Shown: positions 8,304 to 53,908 of the stretch, in pieces
Layout: each line of letters opens with the position of its first letter
Numbering within the stretch: position 1 is the first letter of the stretch
From: an uncultured Planctomycetia bacterium
Lineage (GTDB): Bacteria > Omnitrophota > Gorgyraeia > 2-02-FULL-51-18
Direction of reading: 5' to 3'
Length of the DNA: 58,378 bases
Assembly (NCBI GenBank): GCA_964374005.1
Contig: CAYJXB010000001.1
Location: 1-58,378 of the forward strand
Notes under the pieces: generated by a model
Databases searched by the model: none
Told to the model about the DNA's origin: nothing
The model's input: only the letters and a program-made list of their open reading frames with translations
Made by a program: the position numbers and the translations under genes

Positions 8304-9110
8304 TTATACCTTTACCTTTTTTCCTAACGCCTTTGCGAACGGGCGGATAAACTCTTTGGAAAATTTCGTCGCGCTGATCCCTGGGTGAGCCATGAGGGCG
8401 CGAACAACCACGCTTCCGATGATCACTCCGTCGGCCATTTGAGAAAGGGTCTTTGCCTGCGCCGGAGTGGAAACGCCGAAGCCCACGCAGACCGGAAGTC
8501 TCGTCTGACGGCGAATGGCCTTAAGATTACGGCGAACGTCCGACGCGAGGGTTTTCCTCGCCCCGGTGACGCCGGTCAACGAGACATAATAAACAAACCC
8601 ACGCGTGGCGCGGGTCACCTTCTTTTGTCTGGCGCGATCGCTTGTCGGGGCCAAAAGATAGATTAAATTGATTTTGTGGCATTCGAGGACAGGACTGATT
8701 TCCAGCCCCTCTTCCGGAGGCAGATCAGAAACGATCACGCCGTCCACTCCGGCGCGCGCTGCGTCTTTCGCAAAACGCTGAATCCCATAATGAAAAATCG
8801 GATTGAAATAGCTCATCAAAAGAATGGGGGCCTGGCTCTTTTTCCTTACGCGCGCCACTAATTTTATGATTTTCGCAAGGGTCGTTCCGTTTTTGAGCGC
8901 TCGTTGGGAAGATGCCTGAATGACGGGCCCGTCGGCAATCGGGTCGGAGAACGGGACACCCAATTCAACCAGATCCACGCCGTTTTTCTCAAAGGCAAGG
9001 ATCAGCGCCTCAGTTTTTTTAAGGCCGGGGTCACCCGCCGTAATAAAAACGACGAGTGCTTTTTTCTTTTCTCTTTTCAGAAACTCAAATTTTTTTTGAA
9101 TCCGGTTCAC
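8304..9110 (-). CDS. trpA: tryptophan synthase alpha chain
   Basis: FITAGDP, ELGVPFSDPIADGP. I place the start at GTG 9110..9108 (VNRIQKKFEFLK...), 7 nt after AGGAGG. The ORF-track extension to 9140 (MVGWKKGGGG) lies inside repeat F1-a. Confidence 0.93.
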   Translation of the reverse strand: MNRIQKKFEFLKREKKKALVVFITAGDPGLKKTEALILAFEKNGVDLVELGVPFSDPIADGPVIQASSQRALKNGTTLAKIIKLVARVRKKSQAPILLMSYFNPIFHYGIQRFAKDAARAGVDGVIVSDLPPEEGLEISPVLECHKINLIYLLAPTSDRARQKKVTRATRGFVYYVSLTGVTGARKTLASDVRRNLKAIRRQTRLPVCVGFGVSTPAQAKTLSQMADGVIIGSVVVRALMAHPGISATKFSKEFIRPFAKALGKKVKV

Positions 9111-9258
9111 CCCACCACCTCCTTTTTTCCACCCCACCACTTATTTTTTACGATTGCGAAGCAATCGGTTCGCTTCGCGAACAAAATAAGTGGTGGGGTA
9201 GAAAGATTCGCTACAAGCGAATCTAAAGATTCTTCGAATCTAAAAGGAGGTGGTGGGG
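9110..9258. repeat. F1-a: MITE-like palindromic element between trpB stop and trpA start (composite, contains a 67-bp core at 9132..9198)
   Basis: Arms CCCCACCACCTCCTTTT (9110-9126) and AAAAGGAGGTGGTGGGG (9242-9258), 17/17 complementary. TCA at 9107-9109 and 9259-9261. Internal hairpins CGATTGC/GCAATCG, GTTCGC/GCGAAC, AGATTCGC/GCGAATCT, AGATTC/GAATCT. Confidence 0.9.
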
Positions 9259-9261
9259 TCA

Positions 9262-10443
9262 TCATAAATTCAGCGCTTTAGACGCCTGATCCATGTCCTT
9301 GTCTCCGCGTCCGGATAGGCAGAGAACCAACGTGTCATTTTTCTTAAATTGATTTTTATGTTTCGCGAGATACCCGATCGCATGGGAAGGCTCGAGAGCC
9401 GGAATGATGCCTTCGAGCGTGCTCAGCATCCTGAAACCCTTCAACGCTTCTTGATCCGTGACCGAGACATAGCGGACGCGTTTGGTGGATTTCAAATAGG
9501 CGTGCTCAGGGCCCACGCCCGGGTAATCTAACCCCGCCGAAATAGAATGTGCCAACAGAATCTGCCCGTCGGCGTCCTGCAACGCCTCGCTCTTGGATCC
9601 GTGAAGCACCGCGATTTGTCCCGAACTTAGGCTTGCCGCGTGTTTTCCGGTTTTGATCCCGAGCCCAGCCGCTTCGACGCCGATCATTTTTACGCGGGTG
9701 CCTAGATACGGATGAAAAAGCCCGAGGCTATTGGAACCCCCGCCGACGCAGGCCAAAAGATAATCGGGATCCTTTCGCCGAAGTTTTTTAAATTGGGATC
9801 GGGTCTCTTTTCCGATCACCGACTGAAAATCCCTCACCATCATCGGAAAAGGATGCGGCCCGATCACGGAGCCGATAATGTAGTGCGTGTCGCGCACGTG
9901 GGTCACCCAGTCGCGCAGCGCTTCATTGACCGCGTCTTTTAAAGTTTGAGAGCCCGTTTTGACCGGGATCACGCGCGCGCCTAAAAGTTTCATGCGAAAT
10001 ACATTGACCGCTTGCCGCTGAATATCCTCCTGCCCCATGTAAATATCACACGGAATCCCAAACAGGGCGCAAACGGTGGCCGTTGCCACGCCGTGTTGCC
10101 CGGCGCCGGTCTCGGCGATCACTCTCTTTTTTTTCATCCGCAGCGTCAGCAATACCTGGCCAAGCGTATTATTGATTTTATGAGCGCCCGTATGCAACAG
10201 GTCTTCTCTTTTTAAAAAAATTGTCTTGACGCCAATCGCTTTTGCCAATCGTTTGGCATCGGTGAGAGGCGTGGGTCTTCCCGCAAATTCTTTTAGATAA
10301 TAATTTAGTTCGTTCTTAAATCGACGGTCATTTCTGGCCTTCCGGTAGACGCCTTCAAGCTCTTCGAGAGCTGTCATCAACGTCTCGGGAACATAGCGGC
10401 CTCCGTAAGGGCCAAAATGGCCCCGGGTGTCAGGTTTTGGCAT
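9262..10443 (-). CDS. trpB: tryptophan synthase beta chain
   Basis: [19 protein letters not shown]-lysine region [17 protein letters not shown]. Confidence 0.97.
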
Positions 10444-12755: not shown

Positions 12756-12903
12756 CCCACCACCTCCTTTTGAGACGACAACCCCACCACTTGTTTAGCC
12801 GCATAAGCGGCCGATTGCTCCGCAATCGTTGCAAATAAGTGGTGGGGCAAAGTCGTCTCGGCGCTACGCGCCTGAATTGAAAATTCTAAAGGAGGTGGTG
12901 GGG
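12755..12903. repeat. F1-b: palindromic element between trpE stop and trpG start (contains a core-like module at 12782..12847)
   Basis: Arms CCCCACCACCTCCTTT (from 12755) and AAAGGAGGTGGTGGGG (12888-12903). TCA at 12752-12754 and 12904-12906 (the latter is the trpE stop). Confidence 0.9.
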
Positions 12904-15553: not shown

Positions 15554-16266
15554 GTCCTCACCGCCTCCCGAAGCGTAAATTTATTTTCATAAAGCGCCGT
15601 GCCGATGATCACACCCTTAATATTTTCTTGTTTAAGGTCCATGATCCTGGTTAGATCGCCAAGAGAGCGGACGCCGCCGGAGGCGATCACATCCTTAGGG
15701 AACGCTTGGCTGAGATCCCGGATTTCTTTAAGATTGGGACCCTCCAAGGCGCCGTCTTTTGAAATATCCGTATAAATAATCGTTTGGCCGCCCAATGCCT
15801 GGACTGTTTTTGCCAAATCGGTGGCTTTCGTGTGCGTCAGCGTTGTCCAGCCATCCGTCGCGATGAACCCGTCAAGCGCGTCGATGCCTACGATCATCTT
15901 TTCACCCAATTCGGACAACGCCTCTTTGAGAAACCCTTGATCCAGGCACGCCTTCGTGCCTAAAGTCACCCACGCCGCTCCCATCTCGAGAATAGACGCG
16001 GCCGTCTCAATGCTTCGGATGCCGCCGCCGACTTCGAGCGGTGTGCGGACGGATTTCAATATTTTTTCGACCGAGCTGAGGTTCCTCGGCGTCCCGTGAA
16101 GCGCCCCGTCCAAATCCACGACATGGATCCTGGAAGCGCCCTCTTCCTCAAAGCGCTTGGCGATCTTTTCGGGACCGTCAAAGTAGACTTTCTCTTCTTT
16201 AAATTTTCCTTGGACCAGGCGGACTACCTTTCCGTCTTTCAAATCAATCGCGGGGATCGGGATCAC
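15535..16266 (-). CDS. hisA: ProFAR isomerase (HisA)
   Basis: [32 protein letters not shown] start 16266..16264 at the edge of F1-c. Confidence 0.94.
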
Positions 16267-16432
16267 CCCACCACCTCTTTTTTGGCTTCAGCCAAAGACG
16301 CGCATAGCGCGTCGAGGCGACGCTTTAAATCCGTCGTCCAACCTAAATAAAACTTTTTGTCTTCTAGACTGCGCATGAGATACACGTAAGCGCTATTTAC
16401 CGTGAGCGTCGCCTCAGAAAGAGGTGGTGGGG
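16266..16432. repeat. F1-c: palindromic element between hisH stop and hisA start
   Basis: Arms CCCCACCACCTCTTT (from 16266) and AAAGAGGTGGTGGGG (to 16432). TCA at 16263-16265 and 16433-16435. Internal 11-bp inverted repeat GAGGCGACGCT / AGCGTCGCCTC. Confidence 0.88.
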
Positions 16433-17053
16433 TCACCCCACCACCTCTTTTCGGTAATCAATAAAGTTTTTTATCACGCGAAGCCCCAACGTCTGGCTTT
16501 TTTCAGGATGAAACTGGGTGGCAAAAATATTTCCTTTCCAGACCGCGGAACAAAACGAAATCCCGTAGCTCGTGGTCGCCGCGACCCAGGACCGGTCCTC
16601 GGGATCCCCATAAAAAGAATGGACAAAATAAAAATGATCCCCATTTTTAACGCCTTTAAGAACGGGGCAATTTTTTTTAGCGAGTTTCAAAGTATTCCAG
16701 CCCATGTGGGGTATTTTGAATCGCCCTTGAAAGCGGCGCACGCGTCCATGGACGATATCGAAACCCTTGACTCTTTTTCCCTCTTCGCTTTCGCTGAAAA
16801 GCAGCTGAAGCCCCAGGCAAAGCCCCAGATACGGCGTGCCGCTGGTTATTTTTTCTTTAAGTGCTTCCACGAGGTTGAGGCGTTTGAGCTCTCTCATCGC
16901 ATGGGTAAAGGCCCCTACGCCCGGCAGGATGATTTTTTCCGCCTTTTTCACCTCGCTTTTCGCGGACGTGATCTTGACGCGCTCGCCGTGATGTTCAAAG
17001 GCTTTTTGCACGCTGCGCAAATTCCCCATACCGTAGTCTACGATGACAATCAC
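16433..17053 (-). CDS. hisH: imidazole glycerol phosphate synthase glutaminase subunit
   Basis: IVIVDYGMGNLRS, GLCLGLQ, QFHPEKS. The last codons (KEVVG-stop) are made of an F1-type arm. Confidence 0.94.
   Translation of the reverse strand: MIVIVDYGMGNLRSVQKAFEHHGERVKITSAKSEVKKAEKIILPGVGAFTHAMRELKRLNLVEALKEKITSGTPYLGLCLGLQLLFSESEEGKRVKGFDIVHGRVRRFQGRFKIPHMGWNTLKLAKKNCPVLKGVKNGDHFYFVHSFYGDPEDRSWVAATTSYGISFCSAVWKGNIFATQFHPEKSQTLGLRVIKNFIDYRKEVVG
16436..16451. repeat. Solo F1-type arm forming the last codons of hisH
   Basis: CCCCACCACCTCTTTT directly abuts the hisH stop, so 16421-16447 is the palindrome GAGGTGGTGGGG-TCA-CCCCACCACCTC. Confidence 0.8.
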
Positions 17054-24578: not shown

Positions 24579-25062
24579 GGATCAACCCTTGCAGAATCAG
24601 GTTCACCAATGCCCCGGCCGCTAAATCATCCCATACGATACTCAAAGGATTTGCATTCTTTTGAATCCGGCTGATCGGCCACGGCTTTAAGGTATCCAGC
24701 AAACGAAATAAAATAAAAGCGACGAGAAAGACCGCCGGTGTTTTAGGCAGCCACAAGACACTGAGCATCATTCCGCAGACCTCATCCAAGACAAAAGGAG
24801 TCGGATCTCTGGAGGCTACGAGGCCATCCACTGCCTCGGCCGACGTGCCGCGAGAGGAAACTCGCGGCTTTGAAGAAAACACGATCGTCGCGGATTTGCA
24901 TATCGCAAAACCCACCACGCAAAGCACCAGGGTTAGATAAGGAATAGCTCCGTAAAAATACCACGCGATCAGAAGCCCGGCGAGACTCCCGAAAGTGCCG
25001 GGGGCGAAAGGCAGATAACCCACATAAAAAAAAGAAGCAGCCGCCTTGACCCAGGCGCTCAT
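24556..25062 (-). CDS. pgpA: phosphatidylglycerophosphatase A
   Basis: GYLPFAPGTFGSL, FVLDEV.G, FRLLDTLKPWPI, WDDLAAG. ATG 25062..25060 at the edge of F2b-1. Confidence 0.88.
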   Translation of the reverse strand: MSAWVKAAASFFYVGYLPFAPGTFGSLAGLLIAWYFYGAIPYLTLVLCVVGFAICKSATIVFSSKPRVSSRGTSAEAVDGLVASRDPTPFVLDEVCGMMLSVLWLPKTPAVFLVAFILFRLLDTLKPWPISRIQKNANPLSIVWDDLAAGALVNLILQGLILTLGVPV

Positions 25063-25167
25063 CCCGTTAGACTCCTTACCAACAATGCGTTACTATTACT
25101 TATGCGATTCGCGGTTCGCTTGAAAACTGTTGCGCCACCGATATTGAAATTTAGGAGTCTAACGGGA
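25062..25167. repeat. F2b-1: 106-bp palindromic element between pgsA stop and pgpA start
   Basis: TCCCGTTAGACTCCTTACCAAC ... TTGAAATTTAGGAGTCTAACGGGA. CTCA at 25058-25061 and 25168-25171. Confidence 0.88.
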
Positions 25168-25168
25168 C

Positions 25169-25729
25169 TCATTCAAGCGTCTCTAGATTTTTTATCACGT
25201 AGCGAATGCCGCTCCAAAGAGTGATCGCCACAATAAAAAATAGGCTGAAATAAATAAGCCGGGTGGCGCTCGGAGTCCATTCGGGCCGCCAGACACTGGT
25301 TTCCTTCACGGCGAGAAACAGCAATACCCCCACGATCGCGGCAAACTGTAATACCGTTTTTTGCTTACCGCTTCCGCGCGCGGACTGCGAGTCCCCCAAA
25401 GAAGGCGGGATAAGCCGCCAGCTCGTGATCAGAAAATCTCTCGTGATGATCAACACCACCATCCAGGCGGGCATGATGCCCATTTGCACAAATGCCAGGA
25501 ACGCGGAGAGCGTCAGAATTTTGTCCGCAATCGGATCCATGAGTTGCCCGAAGCGGCTGACCTGGCCCCTTTCGCGGGCGAACTTGCCGTCCCAGTAATC
25601 CGTAAAAACGGCCAGGATGAACGTCGCAAGCGCCAGCGCCTTAGACAGCGCCCCCTGAACGGAAAGAAGGAGTATGAAAACGACGGTGAGAAGAATGCGA
25701 TAAAACGTTAAACGATTGGGAAGCGTCAC
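25169..25729 (-). CDS. pgsA: CDP-diacylglycerol--glycerol-3-phosphate 3-phosphatidyltransferase
   Basis: DYWDGKFARERGQVSRFGQLMDPIADK motif. GTG start 25729..25727 at the edge of F1-d. Confidence 0.9.
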   Translation of the reverse strand: MTLPNRLTFYRILLTVVFILLLSVQGALSKALALATFILAVFTDYWDGKFARERGQVSRFGQLMDPIADKILTLSAFLAFVQMGIMPAWMVVLIITRDFLITSWRLIPPSLGDSQSARGSGKQKTVLQFAAIVGVLLFLAVKETSVWRPEWTPSATRLIYFSLFFIVAITLWSGIRYVIKNLETLE

Positions 25730-25847
25730 CCCACCACTCCTTTCGTCCCACCACTTGTTTTTTGCGATCCGAAGGATCGGCCGCCGATGGCGGCAAAACA
25801 GGTGGTGGGACCAATCGCCTTGCGATTGTAAGAAAGAAGTGGTGGGG
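25729..25847. repeat. F1-d: palindromic element between rimO stop and pgsA start (inner module 25747..25809)
   Basis: Arms CCCCACCACTCCTTTC and GAAAGAAGTGGTGGGG (one G-U position in the transcript). TCA at 25726-25728 and 25848-25850. Confidence 0.88.
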
Positions 25848-27185
25848 TCACTCCACGGTCCCGATCAGGTCGTACTCCAGCGCATCCTTGATTTTGACCC
25901 TCGTAAAATCCCCCGGCTTCAAATCGGACCGGCTATGAATAATCACCTGCCCGTCCACTTCCGGCGCGTCGCCTTCGGTACGCCCGTAAAACAATCCTTC
26001 TTCCTCAGCGTTTTTTTCATCCACCAAGACGCGCAACTCTTTCCCTACCAGAGCGCTATTGAGGCTCCGAGAAATTTCCTGCTGCTGTGCCATCACGGCG
26101 TTGAAGCGCTCTTCTTTGATTCTCTTTGGGATTTGATCCGGCCACCCGTAAGCGCGGGCGCCCTCTTCCTCTGAAAACATAAATGCGCCGAGCCGTTCAA
26201 ATCTCACCTCTTGCAAAAAACCCAGTAACTCTTGAAATTCCTCGTCGGTCTCCCCTGGAAACCCCACGATGACGGTTGTGCGGATGTGGACGCCCTTTAT
26301 TTTCTTTCGAAGCGCATGAATCCCCCACTCCATTTTGGCGCGCGTCACGCCGCGATTCATCCGTTTTAACATCTCCTCATGGCTGTGCTCGATCGGGAAA
26401 TCCACATACCGGCACACACTGGGGTTCTCGGCGATCGCGTCGATCAGTTCCTCGCTGACATGGCCGGGATGCGCATACAAAAATCGGACCCAAGGCACCA
26501 GATCAAGTTTCACGATTTTCCTTAAAAGCTCGGGTAGCTTGAACGTTTTATCCTGATCATAGCCATAGGCCGCCGTATCCTGTCCTATCAGATTGACCTC
26601 TGAAAGCTTTCTTGCGCCGGCAATGATTTTAATCTCGTTTAAAACAGATTCGATCGAGCGGGAACGATGAGGGCCTTTCATTTTTGGAATCACGCAATAA
26701 GAACACGCGTTGATGCACCCTTCGGATATTTTCACATAAGCGAAATGATCCGGCGTCAGGGAAACCCGCGGCGCGTTTTCATCGAGAAGAGTGCGGGGCT
26801 TGGGCTTCACCTCATAGATCTTTTCCTTTCTTTCGAGCGGTTTTAAAAGCCGCGCCAGATCCCCGTAATTATTAGTGCCGATAATCCCGTCCACCTCAAT
26901 TAACTCTTTCTCTAACTCCTGGCCAAAGCGCTGGGCCAAGCATCCGAGCACGACCACCGCAGACAGCTTCCCCTTCTTCTTCAATTCGCACAGCTTTAAA
27001 ATTGTCTCGATGGATTCCAATTTGGCCGATTCGATGAAACCGCAGGTATTCACGACTGCGACGTCCGCGAGCTCAATATCCGGAACAATCTCATGGCCGT
27101 GTTTTTCAAGACTGCCGAGGGCCACCTCGGAATCCACGAGAGTCCTTGAACAACCTAGGCTGATGAGTCCGATTTTCATAGGCAA
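25848..27185 (-). CDS. rimO: ribosomal protein S12 methylthiotransferase RimO
   Basis: UPF0004 N-domain (SLGCSRTLVDSE), radical-SAM CINACSYC, C-terminal TRAM domain. Confidence 0.9.
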   Translation of the reverse strand: MPMKIGLISLGCSRTLVDSEVALGSLEKHGHEIVPDIELADVAVVNTCGFIESAKLESIETILKLCELKKKGKLSAVVVLGCLAQRFGQELEKELIEVDGIIGTNNYGDLARLLKPLERKEKIYEVKPKPRTLLDENAPRVSLTPDHFAYVKISEGCINACSYCVIPKMKGPHRSRSIESVLNEIKIIAGARKLSEVNLIGQDTAAYGYDQDKTFKLPELLRKIVKLDLVPWVRFLYAHPGHVSEELIDAIAENPSVCRYVDFPIEHSHEEMLKRMNRGVTRAKMEWGIHALRKKIKGVHIRTTVIVGFPGETDEEFQELLGFLQEVRFERLGAFMFSEEEGARAYGWPDQIPKRIKEERFNAVMAQQQEISRSLNSALVGKELRVLVDEKNAEEEGLFYGRTEGDAPEVDGQVIIHSRSDLKPGDFTRVKIKDALEYDLIGTVE

Positions 27186-27971: not shown

Positions 27972-30109
27972 TTTTTGGGCCGCTCCGCTAAAATCTCTCT
28001 CGGCTTGGCCCCGCGGTAAGGCCCTACCACGCCATCTTCTTCCATCATATCGATCAGCCGCGCGGCCCGCGTGTACCCCAGCCCCAATCGCCGCTGCACC
28101 ATTGAAACGGACGCTTGGCCAGTCTCCAGCACGACGCGCTTGGCTTCGTCATAAATCTCGTCGCGTTTAAAATCTCCGAAGGCCTGTTTTTTTTCCTGAG
28201 AGTGAATGACCGCCTCGTAATACGCCGGTTTTCTTTGAGACTTGATAAAATCGGTCACCCGCTCTATCTCTTTTTCCTGCACCCAGGCGCCTTGCGCGCG
28301 AGTCAATTTTGATTTTCGTGGGTCCATGAAAAGCAGATCTCCCCTTCCGAGCAGTTTATCGGCGCCGTTTTCATCAAGGATGGTCCTCGAATCCACCTTC
28401 GAGGCGACCTGAAACGCGATCCGCGCCGGGAAATTGGCTTTAATCACGCCCGTGATCACGTCCACCGAAGGCCTTTGAGTCGCTAGAATCATGTGGATCC
28501 CCACGGCCCTCGCTAGCTGCGCGATCCGCGTGATTGCCGTCTCCACTTCCTGCTGGGAAGAAAGGATAAGATCCGCAAGCTCATCAATCACGATGACGAT
28601 GTAGGGCAGCTTGAGTAATTGCGGATCAATCTCTTTATTCTGGACTTTTTCATTAAATATCGTGATATTTTTAGCGCTCACCTCCGACAATACCTTGTAG
28701 CGACGCTCCATTTCCGCCACGAGCCACGCGAGCGCCCCTGGCGCCTTCGCCTTGTCCGTGATCACGGGGGCGATCAGATGCGGCAGGTCATTATAAAAAT
28801 GAAGCTCGACCATTTTCGGGTCAATCATCAAAAATCTTACCTCCTCGGGGCTCGACTTGTACAAAATGCTCACGATAATGCTGTTGATGCAGACGCTCTT
28901 TCCCGTATTGGTCGCGCCCGCGATCAAGAGATGCGGCATATCGCTAAGATTATAGACGATCGGAGCGCCCGCCGTATCTTTACCGATCACCATCGCAATT
29001 TTCGACGGCTCGTTCTGAAAATCGCTCGACGCGAGCACTTCCCTGAGAGAAACGATCGCAGCAGACCCGTTTGGCACCTCAATGCCTACGCGCGATTTTC
29101 CGGGAATCGGGGCGACAATGCGGACGCTCGTTGCCCTCATCGCGAGCGCAATGTCGTTCTCGAGCGACGTGATGCGTTGAACTTTCACTCCCGCCGCCGG
29201 CTGTAATTCATAGCGTGTGATCGTGGGGCCTTGTTCCACTTCCACCACTTTAGCTTCGATATTAAAATCCCGAAGCGTGTCTTCCAGGACCCGGGAGCTA
29301 GTTTCTAAATCGGCTCTGGCCTTATTTTGGTCGACCGCGGGAGACGGCAGTAGAAGATCCAGGTCCGGCAATCGATAACTGCCGGCTGGCTCTTGGGACA
29401 TCATGGGCCGCTCTTTCGGCTTGGGCGCCGGCCAAAGGCCGGCTGGCCTCGCGGCCGGACCCCGGGTCTCGGGTCTTGTAGTTTCCGGTTTTTGCGCTAT
29501 CGTTTCTTTTATTTCAGGAAACTTGGGATGAATAATGGTTGTGCTCACCTTTTTTTTCCTGAAATCAAACAACGACGGCCAAGAAATTTTAAACCGTTTG
29601 AACAAACTCCCCGTCATTTGCAGAATCAAAAGCTCGGTTGCCAGAAGAATGGATAAAAGAAATAACGAAAGCGCCACAAAAACGCCCGCGCGTCCGAATA
29701 GATGGGATAAAAACAGGGAGCTAAAATAGCCCAGGACGCCGCCGGCCTGAAATCGCCCGATTTTCGTGCCTTCATTCAGCAGCGAAAAAAGCGCGCAGGA
29801 TGAGGCAAAAAATATGACGGTCGCGAAAAGCTTGAGCCATAGTTTTTGGCTTTTTTGGCCGAACCACTGGGCTAGCGCCCAAAATAAAAAAAGCGGAACT
29901 AGAAAATAAGAAGTCGTGCCAAAGAGAAGAATGAGAACCCAGGCCGTATAAGCGCCGGCGATCCCGACAAAATTGCGAGCGGGTGAATTCACGGAGGAAA
30001 CTTCGAAGGCAATATCGTTAGGCGTGTAAGACAAGAGCGCGAGTAACGTGAGGATGGACGTGATAAACCAGAAAAAGGCCAACACTTCGCTTCGTTTTTG
30101 TTCGTTCAC
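27968..30109 (-). CDS. ftsK: DNA translocase FtsK
   Basis: N-terminal TM helices, Walker A GATNTGKS, C-terminal gamma wHTH (MVQRRLGLGYTRAARLID). GTG start at the edge of F2b-2. Confidence 0.95.
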   Translation of the reverse strand: MNEQKRSEVLAFFWFITSILTLLALLSYTPNDIAFEVSSVNSPARNFVGIAGAYTAWVLILLFGTTSYFLVPLFLFWALAQWFGQKSQKLWLKLFATVIFFASSCALFSLLNEGTKIGRFQAGGVLGYFSSLFLSHLFGRAGVFVALSLFLLSILLATELLILQMTGSLFKRFKISWPSLFDFRKKKVSTTIIHPKFPEIKETIAQKPETTRPETRGPAARPAGLWPAPKPKERPMMSQEPAGSYRLPDLDLLLPSPAVDQNKARADLETSSRVLEDTLRDFNIEAKVVEVEQGPTITRYELQPAAGVKVQRITSLENDIALAMRATSVRIVAPIPGKSRVGIEVPNGSAAIVSLREVLASSDFQNEPSKIAMVIGKDTAGAPIVYNLSDMPHLLIAGATNTGKSVCINSIIVSILYKSSPEEVRFLMIDPKMVELHFYNDLPHLIAPVITDKAKAPGALAWLVAEMERRYKVLSEVSAKNITIFNEKVQNKEIDPQLLKLPYIVIVIDELADLILSSQQEVETAITRIAQLARAVGIHMILATQRPSVDVITGVIKANFPARIAFQVASKVDSRTILDENGADKLLGRGDLLFMDPRKSKLTRAQGAWVQEKEIERVTDFIKSQRKPAYYEAVIHSQEKKQAFGDFKRDEIYDEAKRVVLETGQASVSMVQRRLGLGYTRAARLIDMMEEDGVVGPYRGAKPREILAERPKK

Positions 30110-30214
30110 CCCGTTAGACTCCTTACCAACATTGAGTTACCCTTATCGACACGATTCGTTGCGAGCCCAGAAACTTTTGCGTTGCCAATCTTGAAATTTA
30201 GGAGTCTAACGGGG
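30109..30214. repeat. F2b-2: 106-bp palindromic element between dut stop and ftsK start
   Basis: CCCCGTTAGACTCCTTACCAAC ... TTGAAATTTAGGAGTCTAACGGGG. TTCA at 30105-30108 and 30215-30218. Its ends match F2b-1 while the centre has diverged. Confidence 0.88.
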
Positions 30215-42470: not shown

Positions 42471-43322
42471 TTACACCGTGATTAAGAAATTATCGATGAG
42501 CCTGACGTTTCCAAAGAAAACCGCGAGCGCTATCAGGATTTTCTGGCGGTTTTTCAATTCTACCACAGGTTCGAGCGTCTGGGCATCGACAATTTCAACA
42601 TAGTCGATTTTGAGATGCCGCGCGTTTTTTAGCACCTCTTTGACTCTCTTTTTGATCTTAGACGCATCGGCCACGCCGCTCTTGACTAAATCCGAGCCTC
42701 GTTGCAGCGCCCGGTACAAAAAAGGCGCCTCTTGCCGCTCGGGGGCCGACAACAAGACATTGCGTGAACTCATCGCGAGCCCATTGGGCTCTCGGACGAT
42801 GGGCGCCATTCTCACGCGGACCGGAAAATCCAGGTCCTTCACCATTTGCTCAATGAGTCGAAACTGCTGATAGTCCTTCTGGCCCAGATAAATCGTATCG
42901 GGCATGACAATATTTAAAAGTTTCAAAACGACAGTCGCCACGCCGACGAAATGGGACGGGCGTGAAACGCCGCACAACCCTTGAGCGAAGTTTTTGACCG
43001 AGACCGACGTTTGAAAATCTTCCGGATAAAACTCCCTCACACGCGGTGTAAAAAGAAAATTAATCTTTTCCTTTCGTAAAAGTTCGGTGTCTTTTCCCAG
43101 ATCTCTTGGGTATCGCCAAAAATCATCAAGGGGACCGAATTGCAATGGGTTCACAAAGATGCTGACCACGGTCGCCTTGTTCTCCTTCTTTGCCTGACGG
43201 ACAAGCGAGAGATGGCCTTCGTGAAGATACCCCATCGTCGGCACAAAACCAATCGCGCGGCGGCGTTTCCTTAAAGCCTGAAGCGCGTTTCTAAGCTCCT
43301 GAGAATGGCGTATAACTCTCAC
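42471..43322 (-). CDS. panC: pantoate--beta-alanine ligase
   Basis: [19 protein letters not shown] start 43322..43320 at the edge of F1-e. Confidence 0.94.
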
Positions 43323-43431
43323 CCCACCACCTTCTTTGTTTCACCGCGACGCCCAATGACACCAAGAGCGGTGAAAGGATTCGCCGCAGGCGAATCCAAG
43401 GATTCTTCGAATCTAAAAGAAGGTGGTGGGG
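43322..43431. repeat. F1-e: palindromic element between folK and panC
   Basis: Arms CCCCACCACCTTCTTT and AAAGAAGGTGGTGGGG (16/16). TCA at 43319-43321 and 43432-43434. Shares GATTCTTCGAATCTAAAAG with F1-a. Confidence 0.9.
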
Positions 43432-43898
43432 TCATGGCAAAGTTCTTCGTAAAGCTGCTTGATGGTTTTCTTAAGCTTTGGATGGACAAGGTCCGGCGCG
43501 ATCTCGAAGAGAGGTTGCAACACAAACTTCCTCTGTGCCAGCCGGGGATGCGGGATGCTTAAGGTTTTTCCCTCAAGGATCACCACATCCCCGTAAAATA
43601 AAATATCCAAATCCATGCTCCGCGGCGTGTTAGGCGGCGATTTTAAACGGCCAAGCCGGCGCTCGATCATCTTGAGTTGCGAAAGTAGTTCCAGCGGAAG
43701 AATGTCCGTGTCGATCTTGATCGCGCCGTTTAGGAATTTCCCTTGAAGCCCCCCCTCTACTTCCGGATCAGTTTCAATGAGGGCGGAGACGGCCTGAACC
43801 TGGATTTCCTTATTTTCTTTTAAAAGTGCCAAGGCTTTGTCGATGTTGGCTTGCCGGTCGCCAAGGTTGGATCCGATGCCTAGATAGACCAACGGCAT
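43413..43898 (-). CDS. folK: 2-amino-4-hydroxy-6-hydroxymethyldihydropteridine diphosphokinase
   Basis: VYLGIGSNLGDR, PRSMDLDIL, IPHPRL. The last 6 codons (DPTTFF) are read from the F1-e arm. Confidence 0.9.
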   Translation of the reverse strand: MPLVYLGIGSNLGDRQANIDKALALLKENKEIQVQAVSALIETDPEVEGGLQGKFLNGAIKIDTDILPLELLSQLKMIERRLGRLKSPPNTPRSMDLDILFYGDVVILEGKTLSIPHPRLAQRKFVLQPLFEIAPDLVHPKLKKTIKQLYEELCHDPTTFF

Positions 43899-45079: not shown

Positions 45080-45805
45080 TTATCTCTCTTTTTTTAAGAC
45101 GTCGGAAATGTTGTAGAAACCTGGTTTCTTGCCGGCTAAAAAAAGGGCTGCGTCGAGCGCGCCATTCGCAAATGCATCCCGAGACTCTGCATGATGAGAA
45201 AGCGTGAACGTCTCTCCGGGGCCACTAAAGATCACGGTATGATCGCCAACGATCTCATCTTGGCGAATGACGTGAACCTCGTTTTCCATTTCTGCGGCCC
45301 TGGCTGGATTCCAACCCTTTGCTTTTGCGATTGCCTGCACAATTTTTTTGGCTGTTCCGCTCGGTCTGTCCTTTTTATGTATATGATGGGCTTCGGCGAT
45401 CTTAATGCTATAGGACTTACCAAATTTTGTGGCGGCTAAGGCTGCCAGCTCGATAAGGGAATTGGCCCCACGACTCATGTTTGGTGACAAAAGGACTGGG
45501 ATTTTCTCCGAGGCTTTCTTTACTTCCGATTCGATTTTTTCACCAAGGCCTGTGGTTGCAATCACAATGGCTGTCTTGGCTTCGAGACACGCTTTGAGAG
45601 CTTCTCGGGTCCCTTCGGGCAGCGAAAAATCAATTAAAACATTAGCCCCTTTTAAAGCTTCGGCCGATGGTTTATCATTTTGATCAAACACGGCGACGAT
45701 CTTAAAATCCTTTGAATCGCGCGCCAATGAAAGGATCCGCGTCCCCATGCGCCCAAGCGCACCGTTCACCGCGATTTTTACCCCGTTAGAAATCTTCTTA
45801 TTCAT
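45080..45805 (-). CDS. dapB: 4-hydroxy-tetrahydrodipicolinate reductase
   Basis: KIAVNGALGRMG. I place the start at ATG 45805..45803, 7 nt after AGGAGA. The ORF-track GTG at 45829 lacks a comparable SD. Confidence 0.9.
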   Translation of the reverse strand: MNKKISNGVKIAVNGALGRMGTRILSLARDSKDFKIVAVFDQNDKPSAEALKGANVLIDFSLPEGTREALKACLEAKTAIVIATTGLGEKIESEVKKASEKIPVLLSPNMSRGANSLIELAALAATKFGKSYSIKIAEAHHIHKKDRPSGTAKKIVQAIAKAKGWNPARAAEMENEVHVIRQDEIVGDHTVIFSGPGETFTLSHHAESRDAFANGALDAALFLAGKKPGFYNISDVLKKER

Positions 45806-45862
45806 ACCATTATCTCCTGTTGTCACCACCCACCGTCAAAGCATGATTTCTAACGGGGTGAA
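45781..45862. repeat. F2a-2: palindromic element between dapA stop and the ancestral dapB start, now partly coding
   Basis: CCCCGTTAGAAATC (45781-45794) and GATTTCTAACGGGGTGAA (45845-45862). Flanks are TTA (45778-45780, degenerate) and TCA (45863-45865). Confidence 0.8.
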
Positions 45863-46747
45863 TCATGACCTTCCCTTGACTTTCAAGCCGTAAGTTTTCA
45901 TGGCCTGCGTCAAGATTTTTTGGTTTCGGGGCTGCATCGGCGAAAGCGGCAGACGAAGCTCCTCGCGGCAAAGCCCCATCAAACCCATGGCCTTCTTAAT
46001 CGGGATCGGATTTGTTTCAATAAATAGGGCGCGGCACAAAGGAAACATTTTATAATGAAGCTCCCGGGCTCTCTGGAAGCTCCCGGCAAAATAAGCGTCC
46101 ACCATTTCCGAAACCGCCTGTGGCACGATGTTGGCGATCACCGAAATGACCCCTTTGGCGCCCAAGGCCATTAAAGGTAAGGTCAGGGAATCATCGCCGC
46201 TTAAGACCGTGATATCGCATAAGGATAAAATGTGAGAGGTCTGGTCCATGCTGCCGGTCGCTTCTTTGATCCCCACGATATTTTTTATTTTTGACAATCG
46301 CGCGACCGTCTCAGGAATCAGCGTCACGCCCGTGCGACCGGGGACATTGTAAAGAATGATGGGAATATTCACTTTTCGGGCAACTTTTTCATAATGCCGG
46401 TAGAGCCCTTCCTGCGTCGGACGGTTGTAATACGGCGTGACCATCAACGCGCCGTCGGCGCCTGCTTTTTTCGCGAACTTCGTCAGCGAAATAGCCTCTT
46501 CCGTACTATTGGAACCCGTGCCCGCTATCACCGGGACTTCGTGGCTGGCCGCCTCGACCACCACCTTCATCACGCGTTCGTGTTCTTTGTGCGACAACGT
46601 GGGGCTCTCGCCTGTCGTGCCGGCCGGCACGATGCCGTCGGTGCCCGATCGAATATGAAACCGCACAAGCTTCGCCAAGGCCTTTTCATCCACTTTTCCG
46701 TTCCTAAACGGCGTCACAATGGCCACGATCGAACCATGAAATTTCAC
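45863..46747 (-). CDS. dapA: 4-hydroxy-tetrahydrodipicolinate synthase
   Basis: IVAIVTPF, GTTGES, IVGIKEATGS (Schiff-base Lys). GTG start at the edge of F1-f. Confidence 0.95.
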   Translation of the reverse strand: MKFHGSIVAIVTPFRNGKVDEKALAKLVRFHIRSGTDGIVPAGTTGESPTLSHKEHERVMKVVVEAASHEVPVIAGTGSNSTEEAISLTKFAKKAGADGALMVTPYYNRPTQEGLYRHYEKVARKVNIPIILYNVPGRTGVTLIPETVARLSKIKNIVGIKEATGSMDQTSHILSLCDITVLSGDDSLTLPLMALGAKGVISVIANIVPQAVSEMVDAYFAGSFQRARELHYKMFPLCRALFIETNPIPIKKAMGLMGLCREELRLPLSPMQPRNQKILTQAMKTYGLKVKGRS

Positions 46748-46862
46748 CCCACCACCTCCTTTTTTCCACTGCCCACTTTATCCTCCCACCACGCAAAGGC
46801 AGTGGAAGAATCCGCCAAAAGCGGATTCGTCAATCTAATAGATTGTAAAGGAGGTGGTGGGG
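46747..46862. repeat. F1-f: palindromic element between dapF stop and dapA start
   Basis: Arms CCCCACCACCTCCTTT and AAAGGAGGTGGTGGGG. TCA at 46744-46746 and 46863-46865 (the latter is the dapF stop). Confidence 0.9.
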
Positions 46863-47675
46863 TCATAACTTCACTCTCCCCTCAAACGTCGTTTGAACAG
46901 GACCTTCCAGACAGACGTCAGAAAACTTCCCACCCTTTCTTGAGAAATAAACCTTCAAGATCTCCCCACCTTTTGTGCGGACGAGCACAGGAGATTTCAA
47001 ACCCTTTAAAGCGGCCGCCACGAGCGCCGCAGCGGTAGATCCCGTGCCGCATGAAAGCGTCTCTCCCTCGACGCCGCGCTCATAAGTCCGTACCTCTATG
47101 GTATTCTGTGATCCCAGACAAACAAAATCAGCGTTGGTCCCTCTGGGGGCAAAATAAGGATGGCGCCGGATCTCGCGCCCAAACCGATCCACATCCACAC
47201 CCCTCAAAGAATCCACGAATTTCACGGCGTGCGGCACGCCGGTATCGATGAAATTCAATATTTCATTCCTCCCGTTGACCTGGAGGCTGAAATTCAACTT
47301 GAGGCTTTTGGGCTTCGCCAATTTGGCCGTGACGATATTTTTGCGGACCTCCGCCCCGATGATCCCCGCGAGCGTTTCGATGGACAACCGACCCTTTTTC
47401 ATCTTATGATCCGCCAAGAATTTTGCGGCACAGCGGACTCCATTGCCGCACATCTGGGCCTGGCTTCCGTCAGGGTTAAAAATCCGCATCTTGACGTCGG
47501 CCTTTTTTGATTTGTCTAAAAGGATCAGGCCGTCCGCTCCGATCGAATATTTGCGCTCCGACAATTTTTTGGCTATTTTTGCCGCGTCGTTCCCGATGAC
47601 TCCCGAACGATTATCCACGACGATAAAATCATTGCCCGCCGCCGCCATTTTCGTAAACGGACAGCCAGCCATCAA
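46863..47675 (-). CDS. dapF: diaminopimelate epimerase
   Basis: FTKMAAAGNDFIVVDN, MCGNG, SCGTGS. Confidence 0.94.
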   Translation of the reverse strand: MMAGCPFTKMAAAGNDFIVVDNRSGVIGNDAAKIAKKLSERKYSIGADGLILLDKSKKADVKMRIFNPDGSQAQMCGNGVRCAAKFLADHKMKKGRLSIETLAGIIGAEVRKNIVTAKLAKPKSLKLNFSLQVNGRNEILNFIDTGVPHAVKFVDSLRGVDVDRFGREIRRHPYFAPRGTNADFVCLGSQNTIEVRTYERGVEGETLSCGTGSTAAALVAAALKGLKSPVLVRTKGGEILKVYFSRKGGKFSDVCLEGPVQTTFEGRVKL

Positions 47676-52622: not shown

Positions 52623-52647
52623 GCGGCCTTACTCCCTTCGTTGGTCA

Positions 52648-52716
52648 CCCCACCACCTGTTTTCTACGATTGCTACAAGCAATCGGTCTGCTTCGCGGAC
52701 AAAACAGGTGGTGGGG
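52648..52716. repeat. F1-g: 69-bp core-only F1 element inserted in the 3' end of argD
   Basis: CCCCACCACCTGTTTT ... AAAACAGGTGGTGGGG (16/16) enclosing hairpins CGATTGC-TACA-GCAATCG and GTCTGC/GCGGAC. TCA at 52645-52647 and 52717-52719. Collinear with 9132..9198. Confidence 0.9.
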
Positions 52717-53908
52717 TCAAGCGTCTTTCTTCTTCCGCCACCAGAACTTCGTCCAGTATCTGTATTGCGCGGTCAATCTCCTTTTCTCTTACCACCAAGG
52801 GTGGCATCAGTCTTAAAACATTCCCTTGCGTGCAGTTAATCAAGAGCTTGCGCTTTAGACATTCCTCATAAATATTCTTTCCTTCGATCGTTAATTCCAA
52901 TCCTGCCATTAAACACATGCCCCGAACCTCTTTAATCATCGGATGCTTCTTTTTAAGCTCATGAAGACGTTTAAATAAATGGGAGCCTGTGATCACCGCG
53001 TTGTTAATCAATTTTTCCTTATTGATCGCTTCAAACGTCGCCAGCGCCGCCGCACAAGCCAGCGGGCCGCCGCCAAACGTCGTGGCATGAGTTCCCGGCT
53101 CCAAAATATCAGCGATTTCTTTCTTCGCGATCATGGCCCCCATGGGAAATCCGCCGCCGATCGACTTGGCAAGCGTTAGGATGTCCGGTTCGAAACCGAA
53201 GTTTTTAAAACAAAACATGCGCCCGGTCCTACCCATCCCCGTTTGCACTTCGTCGAGAATTAAAAGAATCCTTTTATCGTTGCAAAGACGCCTCAAGGAA
53301 GATAAATACGCTTGGTCGGCCACATGGATGCCTCCTTCACCCTGAATGGGTTCCAAAATAACGGCGACTGTTTTTGGCGTCACCGCTTGTTCTAGGGCCT
53401 CCATATTATTGAAAGGGACCGTCGTAAAGCCCGGCACGAGCGGCTCAAAACCTTGTTGGTGCTTTTTTTGGCCGGTGGCCGTGATTGCGGTGATGGTCCT
53501 TCCGTGAAACGAGCGCTCCATCGAAATAATTTCGTTCCTCGAGGGGTTGCCAAATTTTCTGGCGAGTTTAAACGCCGCCTCGTTCGCCTCGGCTCCTGAG
53601 TTGCAAAAAAAGACTTTGCCCGGAAAGGAGTGACGGATTATTTCTTCCGCCAGCGTTCCCTGCAGTTCATGGTAATAATTATTGGACACGTGGATCAGCC
53701 GCTCGGCCTGCCGCTTGATCGCCTCCACGACACGGCGGTGGCAATGACCGATGCCACTGACACCCCAGCCCGGAAAGAAATCAAGGTATTCGTCCCCTTG
53801 CGTGTCCCACACTCGAGTCCCTCTGCCTCTCTCCAATACCAGAGGGGTTTTGGTATAACAGGGAACAACGTAGTCGTAATAGAGTCTAATCGTCTTGCGA
53901 TAATCCAT
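52673..53908 (-). CDS. argD: acetylornithine aminotransferase
   Basis: Class III aminotransferase (FFCNSGAEANE, LILDEVQTGMGRTG, TFGG). The last ~15 codons are read from element F1-g. Confidence 0.92.
   Translation of the reverse strand: MDYRKTIRLYYDYVVPCYTKTPLVLERGRGTRVWDTQGDEYLDFFPGWGVSGIGHCHRRVVEAIKRQAERLIHVSNNYYHELQGTLAEEIIRHSFPGKVFFCNSGAEANEAAFKLARKFGNPSRNEIISMERSFHGRTITAITATGQKKHQQGFEPLVPGFTTVPFNNMEALEQAVTPKTVAVILEPIQGEGGIHVADQAYLSSLRRLCNDKRILLILDEVQTGMGRTGRMFCFKNFGFEPDILTLAKSIGGGFPMGAMIAKKEIADILEPGTHATTFGGGPLACAAALATFEAINKEKLINNAVITGSHLFKRLHELKKKHPMIKEVRGMCLMAGLELTIEGKNIYEECLKRKLLINCTQGNVLRLMPPLVVREKEIDRAIQILDEVLVAEEERRLTPPPVLSAKQTDCL

Follow-up and report, generated by a model that had tools for sequence, protein, structure and literature searches.

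Matched arm changes in a palindromic repeat at operon junctions of an Omnitrophota genome

The DNA analyzed here (the window) is a 58,378-nt contig of an uncultured bacterium of the Omnitrophota, and it carries seven copies, named a to g, of a palindromic repeat, one of which (copy e, positions 43319-43434) separates folK from panC. The arms of the repeat differ between copies in a variable tetranucleotide, and changes on one arm are matched by complementary changes on the other. This observation of matched arms is real and statistically strong. We favor, with moderate confidence, the explanation that the arms form the closing stem of a folded non-B form needed for propagation of the element, as in REPINs, and that the host mRNA is not the cause. 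Matched arm changes are the main kind of evidence, obtainable from sequence only, that a repeat must fold to function.

Covarying arms and a conserved fold

The genome holding the window as contig 1 (G000; 1.59 Mb, 129 contigs, 89% complete) contains 117 well-paired hairpin modules, comprising 63 large elements, 28 small stand-alone modules and 26 nested ones. The modules of 64-71 nt align as a 16-bp stem enclosing two hairpins, GTCCGC/GCGGAC and CGATTGC/GCAATCG. Across the three helices of an alignment of 53 modules, 97.3% of the cells were paired, whereas shuffling the columns gave 87% and sliding the partners gave 37-50%. Changes on both sides were found in 16 of the 30 pairs and in 155 cells, where 41 were expected. 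Covariation was present in every helix, including those of the nested modules.

The same pattern was seen in a set of 109 distinct small modules from seven genomes of the family, with 1675 Watson-Crick cells (96%), 36 G.T, 23 C.A and 10 transversion cells. Perfectly matched 16-bp arms fell into 27 types, needing at least 31 pair substitutions, and 11 of the 16 stem positions covaried. Perfect stems were present in 52 of these 109 modules, compared with 2.6 (maximum 9) in shuffles. The 63 large G000 elements gave 985 Watson-Crick, 13 G.T, 9 C.A and 1 transversion cells with 11 perfect types, and their 16-bp arms were perfect in 43 cases, compared with 9.4 (maximum 19) when the 3' arms were shuffled among copies.

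Arm positions 2-5, 6 and 8 (CCCC, A and C) are nearly invariant, and 74 of 99 modules have no pair at position 17, the stem ending sharply at 16 bp. The matched changes mark positions 7 and 9-17 and the inner hairpins as the parts read by shape, and CCCC-A-C at the tips as the part read by sequence. The near-invariant tip would also fit the recognition site of a single protein binding double-stranded terminal inverted repeats, the copies then descending plainly from founders with identical ends; many copies do belong to multi-copy subfamilies. We regard this account as very improbable, since it leaves unexplained 27 founders that each have the same change on both ends, the covariation of internal hairpins that are not ends, and the deficit of transversion mismatches.

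A covariance model was built from the small-module alignment and searched in the genomes of the family. It gave 131 matches in G000 (both strands counted), 85 (G021, both strands counted), 31, 31, 16 and 7 in five other genera, and none in most others. The core that looks invariant in G000 is replaced on both arms in G021 and G003 by CCCCATCCCC, CCCCACCCCC or TCCCACCTCC, with CCCCATCCCC standing for CCCCACCACC on both arms, and outer and nested arms alike carry the genome-specific core. Comparison with Rfam 15 returned only tRNA at the gathering threshold and, at E-values up to 1, sub-threshold generic hairpin noise with no family match.

The inner hairpins of the small modules mostly have 3-nt loops, the first often being GCGAAGC (e.g. 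window 9148-9162). Triloops fit DNA better than RNA, and GCGAAGC forms an unusually stable DNA mini-hairpin; this gives a weak hint.

On the plus strand, each window copy has the layout TCA-CCCCACCAC-NNNN-TTT ... AAA-NNNN-GTGGTGGGG-TCA. The copies are as follows.

9107..9262, minus strand: copy a, arms CTCC/GGAG; nested small module at 9131-9199 with arms TTAT/ATAA
12752..12907, minus strand: copy b, arms CTCC/GGAG; nested module at 12781-12848, TTGT versus TTAT, G.T on the plus strand
16263..16436, minus strand: copy c, arms CTCT/AGAG; internally deleted derivative of a 320-nt nuclease-bearing copy
25726..25851, minus strand: copy d, TCCT versus TTCT, U.G on the sense strand and C.A on the plus strand; nested module at 25745-25811
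43331-43334 and 43419-43422: tetranucleotides of copy e, CTTC/GAAG on the plus strand
46744..46866, minus strand: copy f, arms CTCC/GGAG
52645..52720, minus strand: copy g, arms CTGT/ACAG; stand-alone 69-nt three-helix module at the argD/argF junction

The initial annotation had listed the arms as CTCC/GGAG in a, b and f, CTCT in c, CTTC in e and CTGT in g, which is correct in all seven window copies. It had also described the single mismatch of copy d as C.A on the plus strand and U.G on the minus (sense) strand, and this was reproduced. Its further statement that copy d is one base shorter does not hold: the stem is also 16 bp, and the copy belongs to a TCCT/TTCT subfamily of at least five copies. 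The nested inner hairpins in a, b and d were absent from that reading, and in the nested hairpins of b and d the polarity of the mismatches is reversed, with G.T on the plus strand.

Side by side with the right end of copy c lies a solo arm, TCACCCCACCACCTCTTTTCGG (window 16436-16455), which abuts the copy and shares its TCA; possibly a second copy, in tandem or since deleted, left this arm behind.

Substitution spectrum, copying and strand

The closest relatives within each genome were compared along the edges of a minimum-spanning tree, a heuristic network. The stems showed 34 compensatory doubles and 71 singles, and among the singles were 57 transitions and 14 transversions (80% transitions). 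At unpaired positions, the ratio of transitions to transversions was 63:74 (46%), or 39:53 (42%) on indel-free edges (Fisher P value = 1e-6 against the stem singles). Correction of one arm by the other alone would leave the raw mutation spectrum in the standing mismatches. That purine-purine and pyrimidine-pyrimidine mismatches are in deficit indicates selection on pairing geometry, and hence that pairing is under selection. The proposal that pairing is kept although the 3' arm differs between copies in its Shine-Dalgarno (SD) content was borne out, with covariation in all helices and transition-rich stem singles.

Identical mismatches recur among copies. A T.G at arm position 10 is common to at least eight copies of the 69-nt subfamily at different junctions, and the TCCT/TTCT state is found in 5-6 copies at different loci, copy d among them. 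Because the same mismatch occurs in 5-8 copies at different loci, both arms must have been inherited from a donor copy. The initial annotation had offered, as an alternative to stem selection, a transposition mechanism that copies one end from the other. Regeneration of one end at every move would account for the many perfect stems in both the large and the small elements, but the shared mismatches stand at different gene junctions together with the same diagnostic loop sequences, and the sister copies L172 and L182 differ by a single arm base, so that this mechanism is contradicted and scarcely credible.

Templated correction without selection is a different matter. Here, one arm of the quasi-palindrome would template the other, by template switching or short-tract conversion, and a mutation would be either erased or copied across. 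Consistent with this, seven of the 21 outer-stem doubles are transversion pairs (C-G to G-C, T-A to A-T), whose intermediates are rare (10 of 1744 cells). Interiors are inverted between identical arms at the same junction across genomes (copy b versus L174, C2_50559 versus L149), which arm exchange could produce, and the common core of outer and nested arms within one genome points the same way. Against it, the transition excess of the stem singles (80% versus 42% at unpaired sites) is not the raw mutation spectrum, mismatches survive several rounds of copying, and with position 17 mostly unpaired the palindrome is not creeping outwards. As the sole cause, templated correction is possible but unlikely; it remains a partial rival and is compatible with selection.

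The variable tetranucleotide also has a host side. Of the 63 large outer elements, 44 have GGAG, AGAG or GAAG in the 3' arm, compared with two of 54 small or nested modules (P value = 2e-14); SD information is therefore held in the tetranucleotide where translation has to restart, and the partner on the other arm changes with it. In large copies with a mini frame ending at the 3' TGA, the 3' arm has the form of an SD (GGAGG, AGAGG, GAAGG) and the 5' arm merely goes along with it. Among elements with TGA on both sides, the core-to-core length modulo 3 is 2 in 47, 0 in 18 and 1 in 2 cases; a frame opened by the ATG either stops at the 3' TGA or continues in phase into the gene that follows.

These features could suggest that the stem is selected in the host polycistronic mRNA, for example by masking the SD until the upstream frame is translated or by stabilizing the transcript. 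Besides the SD-like 3' arms and the frame-compatible lengths, SD-type composite copies have their singles mostly on the 5' arm, giving sense U.G (about 7 versus 3-4), and the recurrent 5'-arm change CTCC to CTTC keeps GGAGG intact in C39, C42 and C44. However, stem selection in the sense RNA should be visible as a wobble bias. The asymmetry of G-U versus A-C in favor of the sense RNA, which the initial annotation had put forward for examination, was not found: on the sense strand, the G000 outer stems have 23 G.U and 25 C.A cells, the corresponding counts over the three small-module helices are 28 and 40, and inferred wobble events number 16 and 26. Stand-alone small modules show the same covariation, although their conserved strand is antisense in 19 cases and sense in three, and nested modules without an SD covary equally. 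The 7:3 excess in the composite copies consists entirely of C-to-T changes on the coding strand, which transcription-linked deamination would give as well. An origin of the stem in host mRNA is thus improbable. The idea of a selected stem was right in kind, and its assignment to the host sense RNA is not supported. The orientation of the nested modules is skewed the other way (16:5), and the skew of the modules is probably explained by reading-frame compatibility.

A weak preference appeared when the element's own strand, set by the order of its hairpins, was used instead. On that strand, wobble events comprise 41-42 G.T and 16-17 C.A (P value = 0.0013 to 0.0015); the G.T:C.A ratio is 20:6 where the element is antisense to genes and 12:7 where it is sense, and in G000 alone it is 25:10 (P value = 0.017). 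Sequences with G.T lie mostly at internal nodes of the network and those with C.A mostly at tips (31/11 versus 3/14, P value = 1e-4). These counts give a tentative hint that the element may pass through a strand-specific single-stranded stage.

Nuclease-bearing versions, propagation and known systems

Three copies of 317-320 nt in G000 and one in G017 contain a single open reading frame (ORF) that runs from arm to arm and encodes a GIY-YIG nuclease (PF01541, E = 1e-16 to 1e-12), whose nearest solved structures are the UPF0213 proteins 1ZG2 and 1YWL. The internally deleted copy c retains a match of 83% identity to residues 1-53 of this ORF.

A second, unrelated arm family is present in G000, with arms CCCCGTTAGA plus a variable tail, flanked by TGA/TCA, in about 36 copies. 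Its arm variants (ACTCC, ACTTC, ACTCGC, CCCCGCTAG, TCCCGTTAG and ACCTCC) are again matched on both arms. The four copies of this family in the window are the following.

856-936: second-family copy
25062-25167: second-family copy
30109-30214: second-family copy
45781-45858: second-family copy

One 281-nt copy of the second family (G000 C54:1720-2000), bounded by TTGA-CCCCGTTAGAGACA ... TGTCTCTAACGGGG-TGA, contains a GIY-YIG ORF that is 46% identical to that of the first family; each of the two arm families therefore has its own nuclease-bearing version. In both families, and in G017, the arms mark the exact limits of the GIY-YIG ORFs. No arm pair flanks a larger ORF, and the only longer copies (317-320 nt in G000 and G017, 281 nt in the second family) encode a GIY-YIG nuclease, which does not belong to a known transposase class. 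The REPIN-associated transposase RAYT (Y1_Tnp, PF01797) gave no match in G000, G007 or G017, an absence that is not absolute as G000 is only 89% complete; PF01797 matches occur in many genomes without the repeat.

A tentative extension, which is rather unlikely to hold, is that both families are substrates of an undescribed system in which a UPF0213-type GIY-YIG nuclease of about 100 residues would read a folded single strand or cruciform by its shape and its CCCC/GGGG termini, and would move the element into TGA-type sites with a 3-bp duplication. If so, the arm covariation and the weak own-strand wobble preference would be the evolutionary footprint of a structure-guided nuclease step. The analysis links the UPF0213 proteins, small GIY-YIG proteins that are widespread and look functionless, to a possible role in DNA mobility.

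The explanation that we favor, a fold needed for propagation, can be set out as follows. The folded form would be a 16-bp stem; what it encloses is a pair of hairpins in modules of 64-71 nt, and in larger copies either three hairpins or a nested module. Insertion duplicates 3 bp of the target, in most cases the TGA where a stop and a start overlap, and a new copy inherits the two arms of its donor. Loss of pairing would make a copy or a donor lineage spread poorly, and lineages would therefore drift by paired substitutions, usually via a transition intermediate that is G.T on one strand and C.A on the other. Selection would act at propagation and not in place, the folded form would be single-stranded DNA or a cruciform rather than RNA, and the presumed enzyme that needs the fold is the small GIY-YIG nuclease carried by a few copies.

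Several observations weigh against this explanation. The two strands do not differ in predicted folding energy (Wilcoxon P value = 0.54), so that the strand preference draws only on wobble-event counts from a heuristic network. The modules from other genera were drawn from top-scoring model matches, which could favor G.U over C.A, and the multi-copy TCCT/TTCT subfamily carries C.A on the favored strand, so that any strand rule is not strict. The other assemblies with an identical PanC (two Logan contigs) carry an identical copy e, and maintenance in place is consequently not separable from selection at transposition. Arm-flanked GIY-YIG was not found in G021 despite its 85 model matches, and small GIY-YIG genes occur in 30 of the 32 genomes of the family with or without repeats; the link between nuclease and repeat is therefore suggestive only.

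Two layers of selection are separated by the analysis: pairing is what the element needs, whereas the host requires that the operon junction keep an SD and an open frame. A stem in the mRNA and the copying of ends lose their appeal as tempting explanations, and the compensatory mutants to build are now defined.

The compensatory hairpin pattern is already known from REPINs, in which compensatory changes across the hairpin have been described (PMC3116915), and the element reported here is an undescribed mobile element of the Omnitrophota. It resembles REP and REPIN sequences (mobilized by RAYT, TnpA-REP) in being a short, high-copy, non-coding intergenic hairpin repeat with conserved inverted ends around a variable spacer. 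It differs from them in that RAYT was not detected in G000, G007 and G017, in lacking a GTAG/CGTC head, in its 3-bp target duplication, in inserting at stop/start overlaps inside operons, in its multi-helix interior and in the GIY-YIG ORF of some copies. The mobile GC clusters (GC42) and double-hairpin elements of fungal mitochondria are, according to PMC4478555, small palindromic mobile DNAs with 2-3-bp direct repeats and stems that evolve more slowly than loops; they merge and nest, and their transposase is given there as unknown, with intron-encoded endonucleases suspected. In contrast to the present element, they are organellar, reside in AT-rich genomes and have no reading-frame or SD role, and compensatory-pair statistics are not reported in that part of PMC4478555. 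The target, the multi-helix fold, the coding versions and the absence of RAYT set the element apart from REPINs and GC clusters.

Classical bacterial miniature inverted-repeat transposable elements (Correia, ERIC, Nezha and others) share with it the terminal inverted repeats, the short target duplication, the non-autonomous copies that far outnumber the coding parent and the co-transcription with neighboring genes, and 16-bp arms with a fixed 3-bp duplication of variable sequence are indeed found here. Unlike their parents, which encode DDE transposases, the coding versions of the present element hold only the UPF0213-type GIY-YIG protein, and its entire interior is structurally constrained. 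Mycobacterial interspersed repetitive units also occupy intercistronic operon junctions and carry small frames whose start and stop overlap the flanking genes, but their repeats are direct and in tandem, and they lack both long inverted arms and a conserved fold. In integron attC sites, sequence is poorly conserved while the pairing of the folded single strand is conserved and one strand is functional; in contrast to the element, they lie at cassette boundaries, where a tyrosine integrase recombines them, and they neither show a target duplication nor are dispersed to operon junctions. The single-strand transposition of IS200/IS605 differs as well, since the element has a target duplication and its strand showed no association with local GC skew, taken as the replication strand (26 versus 27).

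Copy e, insertion sites and shared junctions

The genes flanking copy e match PF01288 (folK) and PF02569 (panC), both on the minus strand. Its parts are the following.

43319..43434, minus strand: whole element with both 3-bp target duplications, between folK (HPPK) and panC
43319..43321, minus strand: target-site duplication on the panC side, TCA on the plus strand and TGA on the sense strand
43322..43337, minus strand: arm adjoining panC (sense-strand 3' arm AAAGAAGGTGGTGGGG), variable tetranucleotide at 43331-43334
43339..43414, minus strand: interior with three hairpins, 43339-43347/43368-43376, 43377-43385/43389-43397 and 43400-43405/43409-43414
43416..43431, minus strand: arm adjoining folK (sense-strand 5' arm CCCCACCACCTTCTTT), partner GAAG (plus strand) at 43419-43422
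43432..43434, minus strand: second target-site duplication, TGA on the sense strand, inside ATGA

On the sense strand, the copy reads ATGA-CCCCACCACCTTCTTT ... AAAGAAGGTGGTGGGG-TGA. The GTG start of panC (43322-43320; ORF of 283 codons) takes its first base from the end of the arm and its TG from the second TGA, and GAAGG in the panC-side arm is a weakened SD. The predicted fold is a cloverleaf, with a 17-bp closing stem around three hairpins and a folding energy of −65 kcal/mol as RNA (z = −7.0) and −39.6 kcal/mol as DNA (z = −8.8). Alignment with five sister copies showed a private paired change from C-G to T-A in the outer stem, with no mismatches, and a second one in the 43339-43376 hairpin, TTCCACC/GGTGGAA having become TTTCACC/GGTGAAA. 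In the nearest metagenomic relative (contig L241:690-765, PanC 68% identical), the folK/panC junction holds an element of the CCCGTTAGA family instead, between two TGA triplets.

The triplets flanking the elements are direct repeats of variable sequence, mostly TGA and also TAA, TAG, TGG, CAG, CGA and CCA; they therefore represent a target duplication of 3 bp, which leaves CCCC...GGGG as the element itself. Some junctions that are filled in G021 are empty sites in G000, and nine junctions are occupied both in G000 and in another genus. Among these, the argD/argF junction of copy g is also occupied in G021 and G004, with a TAA duplication in place of the TGA of G000, and the trpE/trpG junction of copy b has in G021 the same composite architecture with G021-type cores and an inverted nested module. 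Inheritance of such junctions as orthologues was considered and rejected, as the duplications differ, the interiors can be inverted and every copy has the core of its own genome. In our reading, sites of one kind were hit repeatedly, or earlier copies were replaced; not being orthologues, these junctions cannot settle whether compensation happens in place.

The occupied counterparts of the junctions of copies b, d and g in other genera are loci L145, L187, L174 and L176, with TAA in L145 and L187 and with the nested module of copy b inverted relative to L174. The pattern GACCCCACCACNNNNTTT was tried for searching contigs and discarded as too loose, giving at least 116 matches that were mostly due to chance. 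Runs of N, representing masked or withheld sequence, adjoin repeat-bearing junctions at G000 C11:1430-1530 and C110:1394-1490. At G000 C6:8192-8332, two identical 69-nt modules stand in direct tandem, with one TGA common to both.

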